Of a stretch of 32,000 nucleotides of DNA, positions 1,928 through 31,937 are shown one piece after another. The stretch's first letter is position 1. Each line of letters opens with the position of its first letter. The DNA lies in IMG/VR virus record IMGVR_UViG_3300013426_000021, positions 31,669 to 63,668 of that record. The stretch is one strand, 5' to 3'. The translations under genes were made by a program, and so were the position numbers. The notes under the pieces were generated by a model that was not told the origin of the DNA, did no database searches, and saw only the letters and a program-made list of their open reading frames with translations. This DNA comes from a virus.

Positions 1928-2833
1928 ATGGTAAAACGATTTGCGGCAGTTGCGCTGAGCATTATGCTTCTGCTTTGCGGCATCGCAAACGCGGAAACGC
2001 TGAAGATGCTGGACACGGGGGACGAAGTGCTTGCGCTGAAAAAGGCGCTGATGGCGGCGGGATATCTGGAAGCGACAGAAGAAACGACGAACGTATTCGA
2101 CAAGGCGACAAAGAACGCCATCGAGGAGCTGCAGAAGGATTTTGAGCTGGAGGAAACGGGAATTGCAACGCCGGAAATACAGGTGATCTGTACGCTGTTG
2201 GGAAAACTTACGGAAACGAAATCAACCGCCGGACAAGAGGAAGCAGATGCCGACATGGTAGTTATGCCGGATGTTTACGGCATAACAGCAGAAGACGCAG
2301 CAGAAGCATTGAAAAAGCTTGGCCTCTATGTTATTTTTACGGAAAGATATGACGACTCGCAAGAAGGAACGGTGTGCTATACCGGTTGTAAACCCGGAGA
2401 GAAACTAAAAAAAGGAAGCAAGGTAATTGTGCGCGTTAGCAAGGGGCCTCGCAGGATTGAATCCAAAGCCAGCACCATTACCTGGTGGCACGTGAAGGGG
2501 TCTAATAGTGATGATTACGAATTTGAAAATCCTTACATTTACGAAGATACGCTCATCATCAAACTTGACGTGACACTCAACTCTGAATACAGCCTGCGTT
2601 GGCGGGGATATGGCACAGCCTGCATTACGGACAGATTTGATAAGACCGTTCCGATAGAGGTAAAGTATGAAAACGAGCAAATCAAAAAGGGCGAAACACA
2701 AGCAGTCACCCTAAGAATCCCTCTGAGAGACCTCGACGTTAAGAAGCCGACAACCTTATCTGTCGAGCTTCAGCTATACCGCGGTAAACAAACCCCGACG
2801 CAAATCCGTCTGGATTTCACAATGACATGGTAA
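1928..2833 (+). CDS. secreted protein with PG_binding_1-like domain, PASTA domain and an unassigned beta-rich C-terminal domain
   Basis: N-terminal signal peptide MVKRFAAVALSIMLLLCGIANA|ET. LDTGDEVLALKKALMAAGYL...ETGIATPE matches a peptidoglycan-binding repeat. VVMPDVYGITAEDAAEALKKLGLYV...GSKVIVRVSKG matches PASTA. AAAGGA RBS, TAA stop. Opposite strand to the backbone. Confidence 0.8.
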   Translation: MVKRFAAVALSIMLLLCGIANAETLKMLDTGDEVLALKKALMAAGYLEATEETTNVFDKATKNAIEELQKDFELEETGIATPEIQVICTLLGKLTETKSTAGQEEADADMVVMPDVYGITAEDAAEALKKLGLYVIFTERYDDSQEGTVCYTGCKPGEKLKKGSKVIVRVSKGPRRIESKASTITWWHVKGSNSDDYEFENPYIYEDTLIIKLDVTLNSEYSLRWRGYGTACITDRFDKTVPIEVKYENEQIKKGETQAVTLRIPLRDLDVKKPTTLSVELQLYRGKQTPTQIRLDFTMTW

Positions 2834-2858
2834 ATGAAAGCACAGCACAAAATGACCA

Positions 2859-2893
2859 TTGACGTTTTGCGCTCCGGCGATGTATGATATAAA
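2859..2893 (+). promoter_or_regulatory. sigma-A type promoter of small gene P1
   Basis: TTGACG (2859-2864), 18-nt spacer, then TATGAT (2883-2888), overlapping TGATATAAA (2885-2893). The homologous box sits upstream of paralogue P2. Confidence 0.55.
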
Positions 2894-2937
2894 TGATATC
2901 CGAGGTAATATTCAGTCCCTCCCAAAGGAGAATGAAT

Positions 2938-3183
2938 ATGAAAAAAGGTATCATTATCACGCTCGCGCTTGTTACATTTCTTGTAGCTGTTTTCAGCTTT
3001 GACATTCCGGCAATATCCGCGCTGGGTATTGCTTAGGCGCTGGAAACATTCCTGCGCAAGTGGGATGGCGCAAGTACAGCCTGTTTGATCGTAAGCCTTT
3101 TAGGAATGTACTCTTCTCTGTTTGGATGGATCGGCGTCGCCCTTGCTGCGCTTGATCTATACCAGACATAGAGGAAACGATGA
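2938..3183 (+). CDS. small 2-3 TM membrane protein P1 (holin-like size), readable only if TAG at 3034 and 3169 is translated
   Basis: GGAG RBS 7 nt before ATG 2938. Product: MKKGIIITLALVTFLVAVFSFDIPAISALGIA-TAG-ALETFLRKWDGASTACLIVSLLGMYSSLFGWIGVALAALDLYQT-TAG-RKR-TGA. The segment after the first TAG is conserved in frame with P2. A terminator follows. Confidence 0.6.
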
Positions 3184-3197
3184 AACAGGCGGAGAAG

Positions 3198-3224
3198 AAG
3201 CCCCCCACGGGGCTTTTTCTTTTA
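3198..3224 (+). terminator. rho-independent terminator after P1
   Basis: Stem AAGCCCC/GGGGCTT (7 bp, loop CCAC) followed by a TTTTTCTTTT run. Confidence 0.7.
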
Positions 3225-3247
3225 TGGGCTGGAATAAACAGACAGAA

Positions 3248-3258
3248 TATGATATACT
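3248..3258 (+). promoter_or_regulatory. extended -10 promoter of small gene P2
   Basis: TATGATATACT (TG-a-TATACT). The 5' leader GATATCCGAG..AATATT.AGTCCCTCC..AAAGGAGAAT is conserved with the P1 leader. Confidence 0.5.
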
Positions 3259-3309
3259 ATCATTGATATCCGAGAAAATATTTAGTCCCTCCCCGAAAGG
3301 AGAATAAAT

Positions 3310-3567
3310 ATGAACAAAGATATCAAAACCAAAGCTGCGCTGTTCTTTGCCGCAGTTAACGTACTGCTGGCGATTGCCGGTCTGTTCTTCCCGCTCGCGT
3401 CGTTATAGACGCTGGCCTGGGCGCTGGCTGGCTTCCTGCAAAAACAGGACGTCGAAACCGCATGCTGTCTCATTGTGGGCCTTTAGGGGATGAGCTTCTC
3501 CGCCTTTGGATGGGTCGGACTCGGCATTGCCGTTGCCGCCCTGATACTGGCGCGGAAAGCGCAATGA
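3310..3567 (+). CDS. small membrane protein P2, paralogue of P1, with in-frame TAG at 3406 and 3484
   Basis: Same RBS spacing as P1. Product: MNKDIKTKAALFFAAVNVLLAIAGLFFPLASL-TAG-TLAWALAGFLQKQDVETACCLIVGL-TAG-GMSFSAFGWVGLGIAVAALILARKAQ-TGA. The first TAG is codon 33, as in P1. Many synonymous differences versus P1 occur downstream of the TAG. Confidence 0.6.
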
Positions 3568-3577
3568 GACGAAGACG

Positions 3578-3609
3578 GAGCCTTGCTACAAGCAGGGCTC
3601 TTTCTTTTT
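3578..3609 (+). terminator. rho-independent terminator after P2
   Basis: Stem GAGCCTTGC/GCAGGGCTC (9 bp with one G-U) followed by TTTCTTTTT. Confidence 0.7.
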
Positions 3610-3642
3610 GCCAATGGCCATTTTGTGCCGTGCTTTACAGAG

Positions 3643-4842
3643 TTAATTTTTCAATTCGACGAGATACTTGACGGTCGTCTGGCATTCCTGATAGACGATG
3701 ATCTCGTCGTTGCGGAGCATTGCCCCTTCATGCGCATGCAGACAGTTCGCGCCAGGACATGCGGCCTGAAGTTTTTCATAGTCGAAGGAGTTATAAGCGC
3801 CGGAGAAAGAATAAACGTCGTACGGTTTGCCGTAGGCGACCTCATACAGTCCCATAAAAGCGCTGTTCTCACTGCCTTTAGCCCAATAAGAACCGGAAAG
3901 GGAAGTGTAACCAAGCGACTTGCGCGCCTTTGTGGCGAAATAGATACCGTAACCGAACATCTTGCCGGTGATAACCGCGTTGGTGGGCTTGAGAACAAGG
4001 CCGCCGGTGAGGATGGACCACCAGTTTTCATTGCGGCTGCCATGCCAGAGCAGCTTGGTAGCGATATGAGCAGGCTCGACATAATTATCGAACGCCTGCT
4101 GGGTACGAAGGTTCCGAACCCGCCACGCCTGACGGAATTTATCGGCGCAGGAACCGAGGCAGGACTTGATTTTAATGATGTCTTCGGGCGTTGCTTCTTC
4201 AAAGACAAGACCGTTCGCCTCGAGGACGGTCTGCTGTACTGGAGCAGTATCGACAACTTTTACCGGCTGCGGGACATAGACCTGACCGCGCATAATATCC
4301 AGCAGATCCTGTTCTCGGCGGATAATATCGCCGAACTGGTCGACCGAAGTGGCCAAATGAGAGCGGACGCTGGCCATGCGGCGGGGAATAATGCCGAACA
4401 ATTCCGACAACAGCAGATTAAAATCATTCAAGCTGCGTTTATCAACCAGCGCGTTCAGCATGAGCTGCGCTTCATCGACCATCGCCATAGTGACCTTGTT
4501 GGACGAGATGGTGTAGTTCTCCGCAACCGCCTGCCGCGCCATTTCTCTCAGCCGGCGGACAATTTCAGCGATGGGTTTCTGCAGGATCGGCCGATAATCA
4601 TCTGTAACAGGCTGTACTTCAATCAGGTCTCGCACAAGCCATGTACGATCAACATACCCTTTGGAAAGCTTTTCGTTGTATTTCTTCTCCCAGTCCCGGA
4701 GGGAGTAAGTCCGACGCTGCGGGCTTGCCCCCACACGACCGTAAGCCGCTTCCCAGACGGAGCCCATCGGGGTCATATCATAATATTTATTATTGTTGGC
4801 GTCGGCGGATATTTTCACCAGCCGCCGCGGTGTGTATTCCAT
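3643..4842 (-). CDS. WGR-domain poly/mono(ADP-ribose) polymerase (PARP1-3-like H-Y-E catalytic domain)
   Basis: N-terminus NNKYYDMTPMGSVWEAAYGRVGAS...KGY matches the WGR domain. A helical middle region follows. The catalytic domain has LLWHGSRNENWWSILTGGL (His), KMFGYGIYFATKARKS (Tyr) and NDEIIVYQECQTTVKYLVELK (Glu). ATG 4842 overlaps the upstream TGA (TGATG). Confidence 0.85.
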   Translation of the reverse strand: MEYTPRRLVKISADANNNKYYDMTPMGSVWEAAYGRVGASPQRRTYSLRDWEKKYNEKLSKGYVDRTWLVRDLIEVQPVTDDYRPILQKPIAEIVRRLREMARQAVAENYTISSNKVTMAMVDEAQLMLNALVDKRSLNDFNLLLSELFGIIPRRMASVRSHLATSVDQFGDIIRREQDLLDIMRGQVYVPQPVKVVDTAPVQQTVLEANGLVFEEATPEDIIKIKSCLGSCADKFRQAWRVRNLRTQQAFDNYVEPAHIATKLLWHGSRNENWWSILTGGLVLKPTNAVITGKMFGYGIYFATKARKSLGYTSLSGSYWAKGSENSAFMGLYEVAYGKPYDVYSFSGAYNSFDYEKLQAACPGANCLHAHEGAMLRNDEIIVYQECQTTVKYLVELKN

Positions 4843-5297
4843 CACAGCGTATACACCACGATATCGACGCGCGTATCATCAAACGTTTCGAGGATCAGCT
4901 CACGAACATCATCCCAGTTCAAACGATCGAGCCCGCAGCCGATGCGCGGCATAGCGAGACGGGTGATTCCACGCTCCTGAATATGCCGGCGGAGATCGAA
5001 CAGAGCGGCTCCAAGCGTTTCAAGCGTGGGTTTTTCATAGCACCGTTCTTTGGTGACGAGGTTATAAACATCCAGCACGGGGAGCGCGCAAGGCCCCCAG
5101 CCTTCAAAATCATACTCGCCGTACATCTGGCGAAGCTTTTCCTTCATATCATACTGGGTATCAATCTGCCTGGCGACGCCAGCGCCCAGAGCAAAATCCG
5201 CGCTGATGCAATGCACAAGCGCCCAGCCGCGGGGCGCGCTAAGCAGATCGCCTTTGATTTCAGAGAATGTCAATTTCGGATTACAGGTTTCGCACAT
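4842..5297 (-). CDS. TARG1/OARD1-like macrodomain ADP-ribosyl hydrolase
   Basis: 151 aa. KGDLL...LVHCISADFALGAGVA, LVTKERCYEKPTLETL, MPRIGCGLDRLNWDDV and C-terminal IVVYTL are nearly collinear with my recollection of human TARG1. GGAGG RBS. Confidence 0.85.
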   Translation of the reverse strand: MCETCNPKLTFSEIKGDLLSAPRGWALVHCISADFALGAGVARQIDTQYDMKEKLRQMYGEYDFEGWGPCALPVLDVYNLVTKERCYEKPTLETLGAALFDLRRHIQERGITRLAMPRIGCGLDRLNWDDVRELILETFDDTRVDIVVYTL

Positions 5298-5312
5298 ATC
5301 AATTTCCTCCTG

Positions 5313-6623
5313 TCAATAATAGCTGACTTCTTTGCCGGGCTCACGCAGATCTTTGAAAACCGGAAAACGGAGCGACTCGACGCCCGATTTATCCTGCGTG
5401 ACCTCAAAATACTGCACCGTAACGACCCGACCAATAAATTGGGACGGATTCGCCCAGACCTCGCGGCGGAAAGAATCCGTCATGCCGGAGCCGACACGGA
5501 CGGGATTGCCCTTAAAATCCACCACCAATGCGCCGAGCGTGCCCTTGAAGCGGCCGCCGCCTTCTTCGACACCGGTAATTGCAAGATCGCAATCCTGCAT
5601 GGCTTTGACCTTAAGCAAATTCCGGGTTCGCTTGAACTCATAGGGCGCGTCGAGCAGGTTGATCATCACGCCTTCATGACTGAGGCCGCGCTGAATTTCA
5701 AGATGGCGAAGGATTTCATTTACATCGCCGCCGACATAGAGGACGGGAACGGCCTTGATATGCTCGACGTCATGGACGATCGCTTCCAGCTCCTGCCGGC
5801 GAAGATAATACGGCGTGGTGCAGTCGTGGTTGAGAAAAACGCTGTAATCAACGATATCGAACGCGTTGAACACAATGCCGCGCTTTTCACCATCCCGGCG
5901 GACAATCTGCACGGTGTGCTTATACTGCTCTTTGCTGGGGATATTCTCCCTGTCTGCGATGAGCAGCTCGCCGTCAAGCACAAAGCCAAGCGCGCCGCCG
6001 TCAGTAAGCGTGAGAATATCTTCTTCCAATTCGACAAGCCCTTCGATAGGCTGACCCTGCCGGGTATAGAAACGGGGCGGCTTGCCCTTCTCGGCCACGC
6101 ACTGACAGCGAACGCCGTCCAGCTTTTCGGTAAGCGCGAACCGTCTGCCTTCAACCGCTTCGGGATGCTCGAAATATTTCTCGGCCAGCATACATTCATA
6201 CACGGGAATAACCGTGCGGCCAAGAACCTTGTTGACCGTCTTAGCAGAAATACCGAGCGGGATATCCTTACAGAGGAATCGAACAAGGAACTCGCGCAAG
6301 GCCGGGTCGGCTATATTGGCGAGCGTATACTGCAGTCTGGCGAGGACCTGCATATCTGCGGCGCGCAGGCCGGACAAATATTCGCACATGGTAAAAAGAT
6401 CATCCCAATATGAAGCCAGCGTGATATTCAAATTTTTCTCAAGCGACCTGCGCTGAACATGAAAGACGACCATAGGATCGAGCAGAAGCTTCAGGGCGGA
6501 AAACGCCGCAGGACTCTGGGCGCAGGCCAGAATTTCCGGCTCTTTCGCCTTGCCTCGCGCGGTTTGAATCGCATCGAAGCAAGGCCTGATTTCGTGAAGC
6601 TGAGATTCAAGAGTGAAAGACAT
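5313..6623 (-). CDS. lig: ATP-dependent DNA ligase
   Basis: Motif I EKLDGVR, plus LDGELL, FNAFDI, EGVMIN and LLKVK, with an OB-fold-like C-terminus. Start set at MSFTLES (ATG 6623, AAAGGAA RBS). The 100-codon upstream extension in the ORF track has no coding character. Confidence 0.85.
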   Translation of the reverse strand: MSFTLESQLHEIRPCFDAIQTARGKAKEPEILACAQSPAAFSALKLLLDPMVVFHVQRRSLEKNLNITLASYWDDLFTMCEYLSGLRAADMQVLARLQYTLANIADPALREFLVRFLCKDIPLGISAKTVNKVLGRTVIPVYECMLAEKYFEHPEAVEGRRFALTEKLDGVRCQCVAEKGKPPRFYTRQGQPIEGLVELEEDILTLTDGGALGFVLDGELLIADRENIPSKEQYKHTVQIVRRDGEKRGIVFNAFDIVDYSVFLNHDCTTPYYLRRQELEAIVHDVEHIKAVPVLYVGGDVNEILRHLEIQRGLSHEGVMINLLDAPYEFKRTRNLLKVKAMQDCDLAITGVEEGGGRFKGTLGALVVDFKGNPVRVGSGMTDSFRREVWANPSQFIGRVVTVQYFEVTQDKSGVESLRFPVFKDLREPGKEVSYY

Positions 6624-6925
6624 GATGTATTCCTTTCTTGATTGATGTATAATTGCGTTATGCGGCCAGAGGCGAGGGAACCCATTTCGCACGATACGTT
6701 GAAGGGAAGGAGGCCACAGCTTCAAATGGAGAAGATAGTAACAATTTAGAACATTATTCTGATTGTGCTTCAGCTGATTGCAGCTGCGTTCGAGTTGGCT
6801 AAACCACAGGACACCGCTGTGACCATCCATGTTGAGGGCAATAACAACAACGTTATTGTCATTGTCAACACTGGGATGAAGTAACAACCGCCAGTGATGA
6901 CGCGCCGTGTTACTTCTCCGGCGCA

Positions 6926-6958
6926 TAACGCAAAAGGAATTGCGCGCGAATCGCGCAA
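6926..6958 (-). terminator. rho-independent terminator after the PAPS-reductase gene
   Basis: On the minus strand: TTGCGCG-attcg-CGCGCAA hairpin (6940-6958) followed by TTCCTTTTG. Confidence 0.55.
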
Positions 6959-6963
6959 GGAAA

Positions 6964-7824
6964 TTACACAGATAAATACCAGGCCATTACCTCTTCAGGC
7001 GAAGACCACAGATCGTTCGGCAAACCACGTTCGTCCCGCGCTTTCAACATCCGGTCGAACGCGCGAAGATACGCTTCTTCATATTTCGGATATCGTTCAA
7101 AATCGCGCTGGCGATTTTTTACGGAGCCCATCGGGCAACCGATACAGCCGAGCCGGCCATAGCCTTCATCATACAGACGGCAATGCGGAACCTGAACCAC
7201 ATCGTTCAGGAAAGACCAGACTTCCTCTGTCGACCAATCGATGATGGGGTTGACGAGCGTTTTCATGGTACGATAACAAACTTCCACCATACGGCGGGAC
7301 GAATCGTTATCATCGTTCAGGATGATACCGCCCTTCGAGCCTTCATGGAAATCGATGCCGCGCGTTAACGCAATCCGTTTCGCCCTTGCGGGCTGCTGGA
7401 GGATTTCCACAGAGCCGTGCATGGCGGCGCGGCGAGGGCTTTCCGCCCAGCGGACGCCCGTTATTGTAACACGCCCCTACCCGCCGGACTCTTTCAGATC
7501 GGCACAGCAATACCGCGCGCTCCGGGACGGCGGCTTGCCAACGGCGGGAATCAAATTCCACATGGTGATCGGGTTTCCGGCCGCGTTATACGGGATTTCC
7601 CGCGCTACGTCAGGATAATGATCCCGAATGAAACGAACCAGTTCAGGCGGGTCCACGCTTGTGACGCGATAATGCGCATCAAATTTAACGCCGGCCATTT
7701 CGCACAGATGATAAACGCATTGAGAATCTTTGCCGCCGGAGAAGGCGACATAGTACCCCTCTTCGGGCTCGAAGGTACGCAGCTTCAGGAGCGCCGCGTC
7801 GATTTTTCTCTGATCGATCATCAT
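6964..7824 (-). CDS. PAPS reductase/PP-loop family protein (phage DNA-modification-type), single reading frame interrupted by in-frame TAG at 7477-7479
   Basis: Track ORFs 7477..7878 and 6964..7422 are in the same frame. PP-loop AFSGGKDS, then ...RYCCADLKESGG-TAG-GRVTITGVRWAESPRRA...CIGCPMG. The conserved GxRxxES motif lies directly after the TAG. Start ATGATG at 7824 overlaps the upstream TGA. Confidence 0.7.
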
Positions 7825-8693
7825 CTCTCCAATATCTCCTCGCAGAGGGGGCAGGAATTCAGCACGCCGCAGATCCACCGGCAGAAATACTTATCTTTAT
7901 GCGGCCTCCAATCAAACTCAAAGAGAATTTTCTCGATCGTATCGACGACCCAGGCCATGGCGGCGTTATATGCGGCCGCGTCGAACGGTTCATCAATGAA
8001 GGTGCCATCCCGGAACATGTTGAAGCGCAGCCGGGCGGGGAAAACGCCGAATTTCTGCTTGACAAACGCGGCGTAAACATAGAGCTGCTTGCGATAAGTA
8101 TCCAGTTCCTTTTTCATGGAGCTCATGGACTTGGATTTATGATCGATGACCTCAATTTCGCCGGTTTCGCGATTTTTGAGCACCAAGTCGGCGATTCCAA
8201 CGAAAGGATAACCGCCGATTTCAATTTCGAACCGCTCTTCAGCGGCCAGAATATCATATTGATCACCGAAGCCGGAGAAAGTCTCGAAATATTCAAGGCC
8301 AGCGTCGTAATATTTCTGCGGCATGCCTTTGGGGAACGGGGGGAAGGAGTGCTGAAGCGCCTGATCATATCCTTCCTCATACTCGGACGCCATAAGAAAG
8401 TCGGGGAGCTCGCCCTTCGCCCATTTTTCCAGAATTTCATGACAGTGCGTACCGTATTCGGCGAAGGCGTTATTCTCATTGGGGACGCGATCGATATACT
8501 GGAGTTTATAAGCCAGAGGACATTGTTCAAAGGTTGCCAGACGGGAAAAAGACCACTTGGTTTCGGGAGGAATAGCGGCATCACCTCGATGGATATGGTA
8601 TAATGGCTCTGCGCAGACAACGCCGAGCCAAGCCTTTATAAAAAGGAAGGTGTAACGACTGGACACGGAGCGCCCTGCAAGGGGCGAAGGCAC
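7821..8693 (-). CDS. Cas4/RecB-like PD-(D/E)xK exonuclease with Fe-S cysteine cluster
   Basis: WSFSRLATFEQCPLAYKLQYI, IADLVL...EVIDHKS (D..E.K) and C-terminal CRWICGVLNSCPLC. There is no in-frame ATG near the N-terminus. GTG at 8693 or 8666 are the only candidate starts, so the start is uncertain. Confidence 0.75.
   Translation of the reverse strand: MPSPLAGRSVSSRYTFLFIKAWLGVVCAEPLYHIHRGDAAIPPETKWSFSRLATFEQCPLAYKLQYIDRVPNENNAFAEYGTHCHEILEKWAKGELPDFLMASEYEEGYDQALQHSFPPFPKGMPQKYYDAGLEYFETFSGFGDQYDILAAEERFEIEIGGYPFVGIADLVLKNRETGEIEVIDHKSKSMSSMKKELDTYRKQLYVYAAFVKQKFGVFPARLRFNMFRDGTFIDEPFDAAAYNAAMAWVVDTIEKILFEFDWRPHKDKYFCRWICGVLNSCPLCEEILER
8596..8604 (+). promoter_or_regulatory. candidate extended -10 promoter (TGGTATAAT) facing the copy-A element
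   Basis: ATGGTATAAT is identical to the box at 25543-25551. It lies inside the 5' end of the Cas4-like ORF, about 190 nt upstream of the GGAGG+ATG at 8782/8799. Confidence 0.35.
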
Positions 8694-14318: not shown

Positions 14319-14870
14319 TCAGGCGGCGAACGCCGCATATTTTTTTCGGATACGCTGCAGGGTGCGCATGGCCGTAGCATCGCCAAAGCCGGCGGCACGC
14401 CCCGCATCGCGCGTGGTGGCACCGTTCATTTTCTGCTGGACAAGTATTCTTTCAGGCTTGGAAAGGGTGCCGAGGAAGATATCGAAATCAGCCTGTGTCT
14501 CGATATCTTCCGCAGTAGAGCCTTCTTTGGCATAATAATCCAGCCCATCGAACATAATCGACGAATCAACGGGATAGGAAATGGTTTTTGTGAAATCAGT
14601 CGTGCGCTTGGGGATATGGACGACATTCATCTCCATCAGGTAGCGGCACATTGCGTTCGTCATATCAAGAAGCGGGGCTTTGCGCGCCGTTTCAATATCG
14701 GGGCTGCGGCGGATATGCTCCAGCATAACAATGGACGCTTCCTGAAAGAGATCCTCCGCGCAGGCGCTATAATTTTTATCATTGCGGCGTCTAAACTGAT
14801 GGACAGCTGACCAGACCAGATTTATACAGGAACGAAAAATCTGATCTTCCTGGCTGGGAGAAAGATTCAT
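14319..14870 (-). CDS. sigma-70 family (ECF-sized) sigma factor, second copy
   Basis: 183 aa. DLFQEASIVMLEHIRR (region 2). ERILVQQKMNGATTRDAGRAAGFGDATAMRTLQRIRKK (region 4 HTH). Confidence 0.65.
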   Translation of the reverse strand: MNLSPSQEDQIFRSCINLVWSAVHQFRRRNDKNYSACAEDLFQEASIVMLEHIRRSPDIETARKAPLLDMTNAMCRYLMEMNVVHIPKRTTDFTKTISYPVDSSIMFDGLDYYAKEGSTAEDIETQADFDIFLGTLSKPERILVQQKMNGATTRDAGRAAGFGDATAMRTLQRIRKKYAAFAA

Positions 14871-16607: not shown

Positions 16608-17504
16608 TCACCACGGCAGCGTGTTCACCGCCCTCGCAAGCTGCTCGGGATGGGAGTGATCATATCGGTTTGTAACGCGCAGGGAGGAATGATTGGCGCA
16701 GTCCCTCGCCACGCCAGCGCCGTTGCGCTTTTCGACCTCGGAGATGAAGGTATGCCGCAGGCAATGGGGGCCCGTGGCAAGGCCGAGCTGTTTCTGTTTG
16801 AAGGCAAGCGCGCCATAGACCGTCTTCCGGTTCATCGGCTGGCCATGCGTGGAGAGGAAGAGCGGGCGGGAATGATCGGCCGCGTCGGGGCGGGTTTGAA
16901 GATACGCGTCGAGCACGTCGTAGAACGAATCCTTGACGTAAACATCCTCCCAGTTGCCGCCTTTGCGTTTGCAGTAGATTTTGCCGCGCTCGCCGTCGAG
17001 CACGTCGCCGATAGTCAGCGCGCACAGCTCGCTCACGCGCATGCCGGATTCCAGAATAAGCGTGCAGATGGCGCGATCGCGCAGCTTATTACGGCCGGGC
17101 ATATCGCCGAGCAGCTTGCGTGTCTGCTGGACGGTCATGTACTTTTCCTTGCGCTCCCACTTTGGGACGGCCTTCTCATTAGGGAGCTTATGCGTGGTCA
17201 GCACGCCGCTGAGATCTTCCGCCGTGGCCTGCGCAACCTTCCACGCCCAGCGGAAGAACGGGTTGAGCATGCAAACGTAATTGTTGCGCGTGGTCATCTT
17301 GCAGCGGGCGGCAAGCTGGTTATAATATTCATCCAGCACGGCGGGCGTAAGGCCGGAGAGTTCGTTTTCCCCGACCTGCACGCCATGATCCCGCTCCAGC
17401 TGCCGGAGGATGCGATTGAGAACCTCGGCGCAATGTGCCGCTGAAACATCCGAAGCGCCGCCGGCCTTATAGCTCGCGGCATAGCGTTCAACCAGCCTGT
17501 ACAT
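16608..17504 (-). CDS. int: tyrosine recombinase / phage integrase
   Basis: ESGMRVSELCALTIGDV (Arg), HCLRHTFISEV (HxxR), HSSLRVTNRYDH (His..Tyr). Start at MYRLVERY (ATG 17504, GGAGGG RBS). Confidence 0.85.
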   Translation of the reverse strand: MYRLVERYAASYKAGGASDVSAAHCAEVLNRILRQLERDHGVQVGENELSGLTPAVLDEYYNQLAARCKMTTRNNYVCMLNPFFRWAWKVAQATAEDLSGVLTTHKLPNEKAVPKWERKEKYMTVQQTRKLLGDMPGRNKLRDRAICTLILESGMRVSELCALTIGDVLDGERGKIYCKRKGGNWEDVYVKDSFYDVLDAYLQTRPDAADHSRPLFLSTHGQPMNRKTVYGALAFKQKQLGLATGPHCLRHTFISEVEKRNGAGVARDCANHSSLRVTNRYDHSHPEQLARAVNTLPW

Positions 17505-17709
17505 TTCCCTGCTCCCTCCTTCTGCGCGCGGCGACGATCTGTTTATATTCCTCAACGACCTCATTCAGCCGGGGCGTGCGCAGATAGCGCCAGTAACGCG
17601 TGCCGAACTCGTCCTTATAGGAATTCTCATAACGGATATCGTGGACGTGGATGAAGGTTTCGAGGGCGAAGTTGTTCGTTTCAAAGATTTCGGGATTCTG
17701 ATTCATCAT
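17488..17709 (-). CDS. small protein, possibly DUF5659-like / recombination directionality candidate
   Basis: AGGAGG RBS. 73 aa, immediately upstream of and overlapping int. Family assignment from memory only. Confidence 0.5.
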   Translation of the reverse strand: MMNQNPEIFETNNFALETFIHVHDIRYENSYKDEFGTRYWRYLRTPRLNEVVEEYKQIVAARRRREQGNVQAG

Positions 17710-25522: not shown

Positions 25523-25551
25523 TTGCACACCTGTTCTACGTATGGTATAAT
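25523..25551 (+). promoter_or_regulatory. strong sigma-A promoter (TTGCAC-17-TATAAT with TG extension)
   Basis: TTGCAC 25523-25528, 17-nt spacer ending in TGG, TATAAT 25546-25551. Confidence 0.7.
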
Positions 25552-25613
25552 GCAAATAAGAGCGCTTGCGTTTCTTTTCCTTTCGCCATTTTGTTTTGGG
25601 AGGAGAAAAGAAA

Positions 25614-25895
25614 ATGATAAAGTTGCTCGATAAACATTCTGCGTCGGTTTCACTCATACTTGGATAGACCGGAGCGCTTGCGCCTTTCCCTGTAAACTTT
25701 GCGCTGAATTCAGCTGGGGTCGCCCTCGCGGCACGCGGGGCGATGATTCAGCGCAGCCTGATGGGTTACATCGGGGTAGGGTTGGCGTAGCTCGGGTTTA
25801 TCCCGGCAGAGTGGCTGGCGATTGGACTAATCGTTATTTCCTGGCTGGGATGGTTAGCCGCAATCGCGCCGACAAGGAAGGAATGGGGCGGGTAA
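25614..25895 (+). CDS. small multi-TM membrane protein readable only through in-frame TAG at 25665 and 25788
   Basis: GGGAGGAG RBS 8 nt before the ATG. Product: MIKLLDKHSASVSLILG-TAG-TGALAPFPVNFALNSAGVALAARGAMIQRSLMGYIGVGLA-TAG-LGFIPAEWLAIGLIVISWLGWLAAIAPTRKEWGG-TAA. The stop sits in the loop of a terminator. Confidence 0.6.
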
Positions 25896-25915
25896 CCGTC
25901 CCGTTTTTGTTTTGT
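25885..25915 (+). terminator. rho-independent terminator
   Basis: GGGGCGG-GTAA-CCGTCCC (7 bp with one G-U, GNRA loop) followed by GTTTTTGTTTTGTT. Confidence 0.7.
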
Positions 25916-25946
25916 TCCGCTCATGATTTTATGACGCCGGATTATA

Positions 25947-25955
25947 TGATATAAT
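25947..25955 (+). promoter_or_regulatory. extended -10 promoter (TGATATAAT)
   Basis: TG-a-TATAAT lies 19 nt upstream of ATG 25974. Same TATGATATA box family as at 1886, 2885 and 3250. Confidence 0.55.
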
Positions 25956-25973
25956 CAAGGGCGAGGTGGTTGT

Positions 25974-26276
25974 ATGGATACCCTTAAGCTTACGAAAAAA
26001 GAGCATCGCGATCTGGTTCGATTGAAGCGCGGCGAGAAGCTTACGCAAGAAGAAGGTTTCCCGCTTTATCAAAAAGGACTTGCAACTCGTAAATTTCTGA
26101 ATTTTCAGTGCGGCACCCCAACCGAGGTGCAGTACTATATCAGCGAGGAAGGGGTTCAATATTTTCGCGATAGATTTGAGAGGATGAGATCTTCCTGGGG
26201 GAGGGCGGCAATCGCAGTTGCCACAATCGCCGGCGGATTAGTTGCCGTAATTGAATTTTTATGCAAGTCCGAATGA
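25974..26276 (+). CDS. small protein with C-terminal TM anchor
   Basis: GAGGTGG RBS. 100 aa with a basic/helical N-terminus and AAIAVATIAGGLVAVIEFL near the C-terminus. TGA stop. Confidence 0.65.
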   Translation: MDTLKLTKKEHRDLVRLKRGEKLTQEEGFPLYQKGLATRKFLNFQCGTPTEVQYYISEEGVQYFRDRFERMRSSWGRAAIAVATIAGGLVAVIEFLCKSE

Positions 26277-30667: not shown

Positions 30668-30750
30668 TTACATTAACTGCGCTATTCTTGCTGAATGAAT
30701 GATAGTTTAATTTATTCTGCCCTCCTTGCTTCGTATGTCGGTGTACCGAC

Positions 30751-31101
30751 CTACGCCTCCCATTTCACCTTCTTCGGCTCCGGCATAAACATCACCGCGT
30801 AAACCTTCTCGATCATCTCGCCGCCGGCGAAGTATTTATCCCACACATCGTCGCGGTTCTCTCCCTCGCCGTGCAGCTTGAAGAGCGCGCCGGGGAAACG
30901 CTCGCTGAGCTCAGCCATATCGTCCTCATGGCCGTACCAGCGCCATTCTCCATTCGGCTCCGCGTTAAAGACCTGATCCTGCGGGTCGTAATAGAAGTCG
31001 CCCAGCGGCATATTCAGCTCCTCGATAGCCGCTTCTATCTTTTCAACATCCTGCGCCGCGACATGCAGCGCCTCCATAGAATACGAAGTCAGATAGCCCA
31101 T
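30751..31101 (-). CDS. acid-rich hypothetical protein; the only gene in the window ending in TAG
   Basis: GGAGGA RBS. 116 aa. Stop TAG at 30753-30751 is followed in frame by 12 sense codons (VGTPTYEARRAE) and TAA at 30714-30712. Confidence 0.6.
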   Translation of the reverse strand: MGYLTSYSMEALHVAAQDVEKIEAAIEELNMPLGDFYYDPQDQVFNAEPNGEWRWYGHEDDMAELSERFPGALFKLHGEGENRDDVWDKYFAGGEMIEKVYAVMFMPEPKKVKWEA

Positions 31102-31551: not shown

Positions 31552-31937
31552 TATTTTCCCTCCACGTTGAATTTGATTTCGGTCGGCTCTACGGTCAGCC
31601 CGTATTCGTTGCAGCACCATTCCACCAGCTGCGGGGCGAGCTGTTCCGCATTGGCACAAGCTTCTATCGCCCGCTTCTTGGATTGGCGCGGCACTTCCAG
31701 CAGCAAATGTTTAATGCCTGAGCCGAGGAAACAACTTACCACGTGCCCATACTCATATTCCGGCGTGGCGTGCAGGTAATAGCCGCGGGGTTCGTTCTTG
31801 TAGGTGAAACAGTTGGTTCCGCCCAAATTATAGATCACGGAGAGCCGGATACGGTTGGTCTTGGCATCCACCATGCGCGCATTGCGCGCCTTACTGATAT
31901 CCACGCCCGCAACGGGCACGCAGCACTCAATTCTCAT
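31551..31937 (-). CDS. hypothetical protein
   Basis: 128 aa. The ATG overlaps the upstream stop. No motif recognised. Confidence 0.5.
   Translation of the reverse strand: MRIECCVPVAGVDISKARNARMVDAKTNRIRLSVIYNLGGTNCFTYKNEPRGYYLHATPEYEYGHVVSCFLGSGIKHLLLEVPRQSKKRAIEACANAEQLAPQLVEWCCNEYGLTVEPTEIKFNVEGK

Follow-up and report, generated by a model that had tools for sequence, protein, structure and literature searches.

Autonomous TAG-rich membrane-protein units with two putative translational locks in a recoded tailed phage

The virus record IMGVR_UViG_3300013426_000021 of IMG/VR derives from a ~117-kb tailed phage, probably infecting Clostridia, and a 32,000-nt stretch of this record (positions 31,669 to 63,668, hereafter the window) carries three small plus-strand genes, P1, P2 and P3, whose reading frames are interrupted by TAG codons. 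P1-P3 are autonomous, putatively doubly locked, TAG-rich membrane-protein units that lie outside a lysis cassette, the recoding of stop codons by phages being itself already known. We consider it moderately likely that they encode accessory membrane effectors whose translation is held back by a leader hairpin together with the TAGs. The prevailing view is that in-frame stops let recoded phages postpone the production of dangerous late proteins, but clear, simple test cases are rare; the P1 and P2 units are compact and offer two separable translational locks, which makes the gating hypothesis directly testable.

P1 and P2 lie in tandem at 2859-3609. The original prediction had described this segment as two complete units, each with a promoter, leader, ribosome-binding site, open reading frame (ORF) and terminator, and both units exist as described:

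2859-2893 (+): unit 1 promoter, TTGACG-18-TATGAT (2859-2888), from a consensus scan and the sequence.
2895-2954 (+): unit 1 leader hairpin, from folding; the leader is ~43 nt long and runs from about 2895.
2938-3183 (+): P1 gene, 81 codons, from the ATG at 2938 to the TGA at 3181-3183, which is its true stop.
3191-3222 (+): unit 1 intrinsic terminator, a hairpin with a U-run (−21 kcal/mol, z = −3.2).
3235-3263 (+): unit 2 promoter-like site, TAAACA-17-TATCAT, from a consensus scan and the sequence, weaker than that of unit 1.
3265-3326 (+): unit 2 leader hairpin, from folding; the leader begins at 3265.
3310-3567 (+): P2 gene, 85 codons, a paralogue of P1, from the ATG at 3310 to the TGA at 3565-3567.
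3571-3609 (+): unit 2 intrinsic terminator, a hairpin (3577-3601) plus a T-run (−24.6 kcal/mol, z = −5.1).

Each unit is self-contained within ~370 bp, with an extended −10-like element overlapping the unit 1 promoter (TGATATAAA) and another, TGATATACT at 3250-3258, within the promoter-like site of unit 2. The two proteins share 36% identity (phmmer E about 1e-10), and the 29-nt core of their leaders occurs in exactly two copies in the window, where none is expected. The in-frame TAGs are found at 3034-3036 (codon 33) and 3169-3171 (codon 78) of P1, the latter followed by RKR and then TGA, and at 3406-3408 (codon 33) and 3484-3486 (codon 59) of P2, and standard gene callers report only 32-aa ORFs for both genes.

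No near relative of this phage was present among GenBank phages, the top match to its DNA polymerase III alpha subunit reaching 38.6%, and the P1-P2 region is 100% identical in eight loci from other assemblies, which are uninformative on selection. Diverged relatives, found through the gene upstream of P1 and one protein match, provided a set of four P1 variants and four P2 variants (related loci are cited below by L numbers). The original prediction had claimed that conservation continues in the same frame past the TAG, and these orthologues bear it out, as the TAGs are kept and the ratio of non-synonymous to synonymous differences per site (pN/pS) is low downstream. Both TAGs are retained in 4/4 P1 variants (including those of L001, L010 and L011), and the P1 variants, rather than simply ending at codon 32, continue in frame with changes biased to synonymous sites. 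Downstream of TAG33 the pN/pS of P1 is 0.19-0.34, a level of purifying selection like that of the upstream part, with 10 synonymous and 6 non-synonymous differences on 33.8 and 107.2 sites, respectively, between the window and L001. Reading past the codon-78 TAG into a basic tail, as had also been proposed, agrees with the variants as well: with # denoting TAG, the tail #[RK]KR is kept in all of them and takes the forms RKR-TGA, KKR-TGA or KKR-TAA. In P2, both TAGs are kept in three variants, while in L001 the first is gone through a 4-codon deletion and the gene is interrupted at the second. These comparisons show purifying selection on the frame downstream of the TAG, and the ORFs run through it to give 81- and 85-aa proteins. 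As a separate observation, the insert in the L001 P2 gene sits exactly at the position of the second TAG and is flanked by the inverted repeat TATCTGAAAAA ... TTTTTCAGATA, and P1 of the same locus starts with ATA instead of ATG (L001 414 and 975-1130).

Two further arguments of the original prediction fared less well. A TAG at codon 33 is present in both P1 and P2 as stated, but the two are not at homologous positions, as P2 has 4 extra N-terminal codons: in the alignment, TAG33 of P1 faces a TGG (Trp) of P2, TAG33 of P2 faces a CTG (leucine, Leu) of P1, and TAG59 of P2 faces a TTA (Leu) of P1 within the conserved motif CLIV[SG]L[L/#]GM. The shared codon number is, as judged from this alignment, a coincidence of numbering. 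Likewise, the claimed excess of synonymous differences between P1 and P2 themselves is not significant, the differences being distributed as 14/18/22 over the three codon positions (p = 0.41).

The first of the two putative locks lies in the leaders. In the predicted P1 leader hairpin, the Shine-Dalgarno (SD) sequence GGAG, the AUG and codons 4-5 are paired with upstream bases (−16 kcal/mol, z = −3.0), and the P2 leader hairpin hides its SD, AUG and codons 4-5 (−14.5 kcal/mol, z = −6.2, 0/200 shuffles as stable). The P3 leader is also SD-sequestering (z = −2.1), the SD being paired with upstream pyrimidines in all three mRNAs, and the leaders of L010 and L001, which differ in primary sequence, adopt the same fold (z = −1.9 to −3.0). 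Across the five sequences compared, compensatory changes were found in 3 of 19 predicted leader pairs, and a C-G to U-A compensatory change distinguishes the unit 2 leader from that of unit 1; folding and comparison together show that a predicted SD-sequestering leader structure is conserved. No Rfam family was found in the window at gathering thresholds. In L010 (10017-10180), the unit 2 leader survives as a defunct copy, its ATG destroyed, and the P2 gene after it has a different promoter, leader and N-terminus, all of them new.

The second putative lock, the TAG codon, is not confined to P1 and P2. In-frame TAGs were identified in four further conserved genes of this phage, one in the window and three in the 8 kb to its left:

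6964-7878 (−): PAPS-reductase-family gene with TAG at 7477-7479 (codon 134), spanned by the Pfam PAPS_reduct match at residues 43-249.
L002 5237-5612 (−): RemA-like gene.
L002 about 1007-1219 (−): NrdH-like (glutaredoxin) gene.
L002 about 1274-2044 (−): RuvC-like (resolvase) gene.

The last three contain one in-frame TAG each. The TAG of the PAPS-reductase-family gene is kept in 8 related loci, and those of the RemA-like and RuvC-like genes persist even in L013, whose proteins are 78-88% identical. Furthermore, TAG is avoided as a terminator: the 45 confident genes (11,118 codons) end in 28 TGA and 17 TAA stops, at most 1 could end in TAG, and the binomial probability against an assumed 20% is 5e-4. 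In-frame TAGs within conserved domains and the avoidance of TAG as a stop mark the phage as recoded, with TAG a sense codon genome-wide, and read-through at TAG is not special to P1 and P2. Standard gene callers split or truncate the TAG-bearing PAPS-reductase, RemA-like, NrdH-like and RuvC-like genes. The only gene with an apparent TAG stop, at 30712-31101 (−), has this codon at position 117; read-through would add 12 residues before a TGA, and the TAG is conserved in L015-L017.

These data bear directly on the simplest alternative, in which TAG terminates P1 and P2, the 32-aa peptides are the products and the conservation beyond them reflects RNA structure or has no function. Such termination would agree with the 32-aa ORFs of standard callers and with a suppressor tRNA not being found in ~50 kb, but we regard it as hardly credible given that changes after the TAG are biased to synonymous sites in that very frame, that the #[RK]KR tail is kept with either TGA or TAA as the final stop, that conserved essential-type domains elsewhere span TAGs, and that TAG is almost never a terminator.

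A third TAG-bearing unit was found far from P1 and P2 in the window:

25523-25912 (+): P3 unit with promoter, leader, ORF and terminator hairpin, from the sequence, folding and relatives.

Its promoter, TTGCAC-17-TATAAT at 25523-25551 with a TG extension, has a perfect extended −10, and its 93-aa ORF (25614-25895, TAA stop) contains TAGs at codons 18 (25665-25667) and 59 (25788-25790), both kept in L015-L017. P3 has no detectable homology to P1 or P2. The three genes are markedly rich in TAG, with 6 in 258-259 codons compared with 4 in 11,118 elsewhere (~65-fold, Fisher p = 2.5e-8), and the ratio of TAG to glutamine (Gln) codons is 6:5 in P1-P3 and 4:391 elsewhere (p = 1.6e-8); relative to Leu codons, the excess is an estimated ~35-fold. 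Just after P3, a 100-aa gene at 25940-26276 (+) encodes a C-terminal hydrophobic segment, and the TATGATATAAT element ahead of it closely resembles the −10 region of unit 1, which suggests that this minus-strand arm of the genome holds several plus-strand insertions under similar control.

The enrichment could have no regulatory meaning, TAG being a rare synonymous codon whose excess stems from an origin in a TAG-rich (late) region or phage, or from Leu-rich composition. TAGs in early genes as well, the heavy use of TAG by the relatives L022 and L106 even in replication genes, the mobile accessory nature of P1 and P2, and the about 40 Leu of P1-P3 (37 by an approximate codon count, 41 residues), which would account for part of the excess if TAG = Leu, are all in its favour. 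We nevertheless find this account doubtful, for a ~35-fold excess remains against Leu codons, it is seen independently in P1/P2 and in P3, which are unrelated families, and the TAGs are kept across variants while adjacent codons vary.

We then asked which amino acid is inserted at TAG. Gln would be expected by default, but within the window's own phage the evidence is mixed. On the Gln side, the TAG in the PD-(D/E)XK nuclease of L011 stands where the window, L010 and L013 all have a conserved Gln codon, CAG, more distant relatives having E or D at this position, and the TAG of NrdH aligns with the polar residues E/G/Q/N. The TAG of the PAPS reductase, which aligns with T/Y/E/A by a PDB sequence search and phage homologues, is uninformative. 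On the hydrophobic side, F, I and M stand opposite the TAG of the RuvC-like gene, the RemA-like TAG aligns with L in L019 and Y in L022, L023 having a TAG in the same column, and TAG59 of P2 faces the motif Leu noted above. The flanking hydropathy of the six TAG sites in P1-P3 is 1.23, close to that of Leu sites (1.27) and distant from that of the ordinary Gln codons in these proteins (−0.29), with p = 0.04 at small n. In a BLOSUM-based likelihood, Leu leads by 3.2 ln units with the paralogue positions and Gln by 1.1 without them. Nothing observed pointed to pyrrolysine, although no search aimed at pyl genes was made.

The picture is sharper in three relatives, L022 (ODAI012958182.1, a 116.8-kb contig), L023 (Ga0326514_10141503) and L106 (IMGVR_UViG_3300012979_000041), the first of which shares 61% identity with the window's phage in DNA polymerase III alpha and 68% in PARP. 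Among 36 well-aligned in-frame TAGs of these relatives, 64% align with Leu of the window's phage, in genes including those for ThyX, a RuvC-like protein, DNA polymerase III alpha and NrdD. In the same alignments, true Leu codons align with Leu at 54-79% and Gln codons with Gln at 36-43%, and Leu is not among the five commonest residues aligned to Gln codons (each at most 5-6%). The corresponding log-likelihoods were −67.0 for Leu, −85.7 for Met and −122.3 for Gln. By these alignments, L022, L023 and L106 appear clearly to read TAG as Leu and not as Gln. For the window's phage we lean towards Leu over Gln, and give TAG = Leu an even chance or slightly better. The combined proposal, that the lineage reads TAG as Leu and that TAG-Leu in the hydrophobic segments of P1-P3 together with the SD-sequestering leaders forms a code-dependent lock, seems to us about evenly balanced.

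TAG encodes Leu in NCBI tables 16 and 22 (chlorophycean mitochondria); the same codon change is proposed here for L022, L023 and L106, tables 16 and 22 being organellar. We know of no description of a phage with TAG = Leu in a standard-code bacterial host. In the literature, phage recoding comprises only TAG to Gln and TGA to Trp or Gly, one paper being explicit on this, and TAG is read as Gln where phage and host differ, unlike the alignment of TAG to Leu in the relatives described above. The alignments make a phage genetic code not yet described a credible prospect. If TAG = Leu holds, it contradicts the generalisation that phages reassign TAG to glutamine only, and annotation pipelines that assume code 15 (TAG to Gln) mistranslate these genomes.

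As for the proteins themselves, the original prediction had described products of 81-85 aa with 2-3 transmembrane (TM) segments and a charged C-terminus, a holin-like topology. The lengths of 81 and 85 aa stand, and a hydropathy scale gives P1 and P2 two hydrophobic regions each, with Lys-rich N-termini and short basic C-termini (RKR and RKAQ), but the charged tail is very short. A holin identity is not supported, with no endolysin nearby, no family match and the genes missing in the relatives L013 and L022. Profile searches of the read-through proteins, run with TAG read as Q and as L, matched no holin or other family.

The neighbour of P1 encodes a peptidoglycan-binding protein instead of an endolysin:

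1928-2833 (+): secreted protein gene, first of the plus-strand island, from Pfam, AlphaFold and Foldseek.

Its product contains a signal peptide, PG_binding_1, PASTA and a C-terminal Ig-like β-sandwich (Pfam and an AlphaFold model with a predicted local distance difference test, pLDDT, of 74), the model matches the PASTA ectodomain of PrkC/PknB in Foldseek, and neither Pfam nor AlphaFold/Foldseek revealed a catalytic domain. The nearest cellular homologue of this protein is in a Clostridia metagenome-assembled genome. No lysis genes were found in the window. In L013, the PASTA gene and flanks are kept with P1 and P2 absent, and in L022 the whole plus-strand island is absent at the equivalent junction, which argues against an essential role and shows P1 and P2 to be accessory genes and not a core holin.

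By comparison, the true lysis cassette of a TAG = Leu relative (L186 9204-10354, with L106 19875-20500, −) contains an NlpC/P60-type endolysin gene bearing 3 TAGs. Next to it lie genes for three small TM proteins, one of them LL-H-holin-like; each has 1-3 TAGs, several of the TAGs in the cassette fall in hydrophobic stretches, and P1-P3 have no homology to these TM proteins. Class II holins and pinholins, such as S21 of phage 21, are small, with two hydrophobic segments and a short basic C-terminus, and holin genes are under tight translational control, with upstream RNA structure in lambda S. P1 and P2 resemble them in size (about 70-90 aa), in two hydrophobic segments, in a probable N-in/C-in topology and in the short basic C-terminus, but lack an adjacent endolysin, a dual-start motif and a family match, and are accessory and absent from relatives. 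A holin/antiholin pair of class II topology, with the TAGs timing lysis, would account for tandem paralogues of this size and shape, has a parallel in the TAG-bearing TM proteins beside the endolysin of the relative, and would fit the bias of recoded stops to lysis genes in the literature. We judge such a pair to be quite improbable, considering the non-catalytic adjoining protein, the lack of a lysis gene in the window and of homologous TM proteins in the relative's cassette, the absence of both genes from L013 and L022, which keep the flanking genes, and their location within a replication module encoded on the other strand, with host-type promoters of their own.

The autonomy of the units raises a different possibility, that P1-P3 are moron-type toxins, either type I toxin-antitoxin-like or acting in superinfection exclusion or abortive infection, silenced by RNA structure and possibly by antisense RNA. 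Type I toxins are found on prophages, such as bsrG/txpA of Bacillus subtilis and tisB/hok of E. coli, and their mRNAs typically have SD-sequestering 5′ untranslated regions. P1-P3 likewise encode small hydrophobic proteins on phage DNA, with their own sigma-70-like promoters and terminators and SD-occluding leaders, in units antisense to the surrounding operon; they turn over fast as accessory genes (the leader and promoter swap in L010, ATG to ATA in L001), and an integrase gene in the window points to a possibly temperate lifestyle. A consensus scan, however, found no minus-strand sigma-70-like promoter within 2850-3650 and hence none antisense within the P1 and P2 units, although antisense read-through transcription from the PARP operon is conceivable. 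Moreover, P1-P3 are longer than typical type I toxins, have two hydrophobic regions and match no family, and their TAGs add a further layer of silencing that would block production in a lysogen unless the suppressor were also expressed. We consider toxins of this kind unlikely.

In the favoured reading, P1-P3 as accessory membrane effectors, each gene would be transcribed alone from a host-type (sigma-70-like) promoter into an mRNA whose leader hairpin would cover the SD sequence and start codon as a first lock. The two in-frame TAGs per gene would form the second, acting as stops in a standard-decoding cell and yielding fragments of only 32 aa (P1 and P2) or 17 aa (P3), and full-length membrane proteins would appear once the TAG decoding of the phage is active. 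Temporal gating by a suppressor and toxicity or membrane activity of the products would both belong to this reading. Their role would most likely be that of an accessory, dose- or time-critical membrane effector, not a core holin, with a lysis-timing modulator, membrane permeabilisation and an exclusion-type toxin as candidates.

Several observations weigh against this reading. The leader hairpins are short, and covariation from five sequences only is modest evidence. TAG also occurs in non-membrane early and middle enzymes, and alone is no marker of late genes, and its excess in P1-P3 may have been inherited passively if the genes were transferred out of a TAG-rich region. Searches of P1-P3 against Pfam, PHROGs, NCBIfam and PADLOC gave no match beyond noise (E up to 1). 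No suppressor tRNA with a CUA anticodon was found in the window and 18 kb of flanks (~50 kb of the ~117 kb, the flanks covered through L002 and L015). The same held for the 199 loci examined, and ARAGORN detected no CUA-anticodon or other suppressor tRNA in 60 of 70 kb of the L106 contig (2022-62108, covered through L106, L186, L188, L189 and L190); a detectable suppressor tRNA is reported in only about 40-52% of TAG-recoded phages.

Further homologues were sought in wider collections. HMMER searches with the 44-aa P1 core against 1.84e9 protein representatives returned no homologue, a scan of IMG/VR with the leader pattern, P2 and the PASTA protein returned nothing, and GTDB genomes and JGI metagenomes yielded no further copies when compared with the P1/P2 alignment. 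Four WD40-repeat matches to the P1 core were rejected as non-homologous, reflecting a chance likeness to 'LRxWDGxSGACL'.

The closest known comparison is with the recoded gut phages that read TAG as Gln ('code 15'; Borges et al. 2021 preprint/2022; Peters et al. 2022; Cook et al. 2024). Like these, the phage of the window carries in-frame TAGs in conserved genes, avoids TAG as a terminator and concentrates recoded stops in small membrane- or lysis-type genes, which in code-15 phages were proposed to be untranslatable until the code change is active. The Borges et al. preprint found recoded stops biased to lysis-related genes, including that of a TM protein, and the amber gate that the original prediction proposed is plausible and would match this published model. 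Unlike the genes of code-15 phages, P1-P3 are autonomous units with host-type promoters in a replication module rather than a lysis cassette, they carry an extra SD-sequestering leader, and the inserted residue may be Leu.

The plus-strand island formed by the PASTA gene, P1 and P2 is flanked by minus-strand replication and ADP-ribosylation genes, encoding DNA polymerase III alpha, PARP/WGR, macro, ligase, PAPS reductase and PD-(D/E)XK nuclease proteins. Within the replication region lie a tyrosine-integrase-like gene (16608-17564, −) and a sigma-factor-like gene (14319-14870, −); they raise the possibility of a temperate lifestyle or of a phage-encoded late sigma factor, and both genes bear on the firing time of host-type promoters such as those of P1-P3. 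The DNA polymerase III alpha gene, to the left of window position 1851, encodes 1058 aa or, with an intein, 1503 aa depending on the strain (L003, L005, L006, L007 and L009 versus L002, L004 and L008), and NrdD is interrupted in two loci, by an intein (L013) and by an insertion that resembles a group I intron and carries a GIY-YIG gene (L020). At 3643-6926 (−), genes for a WGR and PARP-like ADP-ribosyltransferase, a macro-domain protein and an ATP-dependent DNA ligase lie side by side, together forming an ADP-ribosylation/repair-type module on phage DNA.

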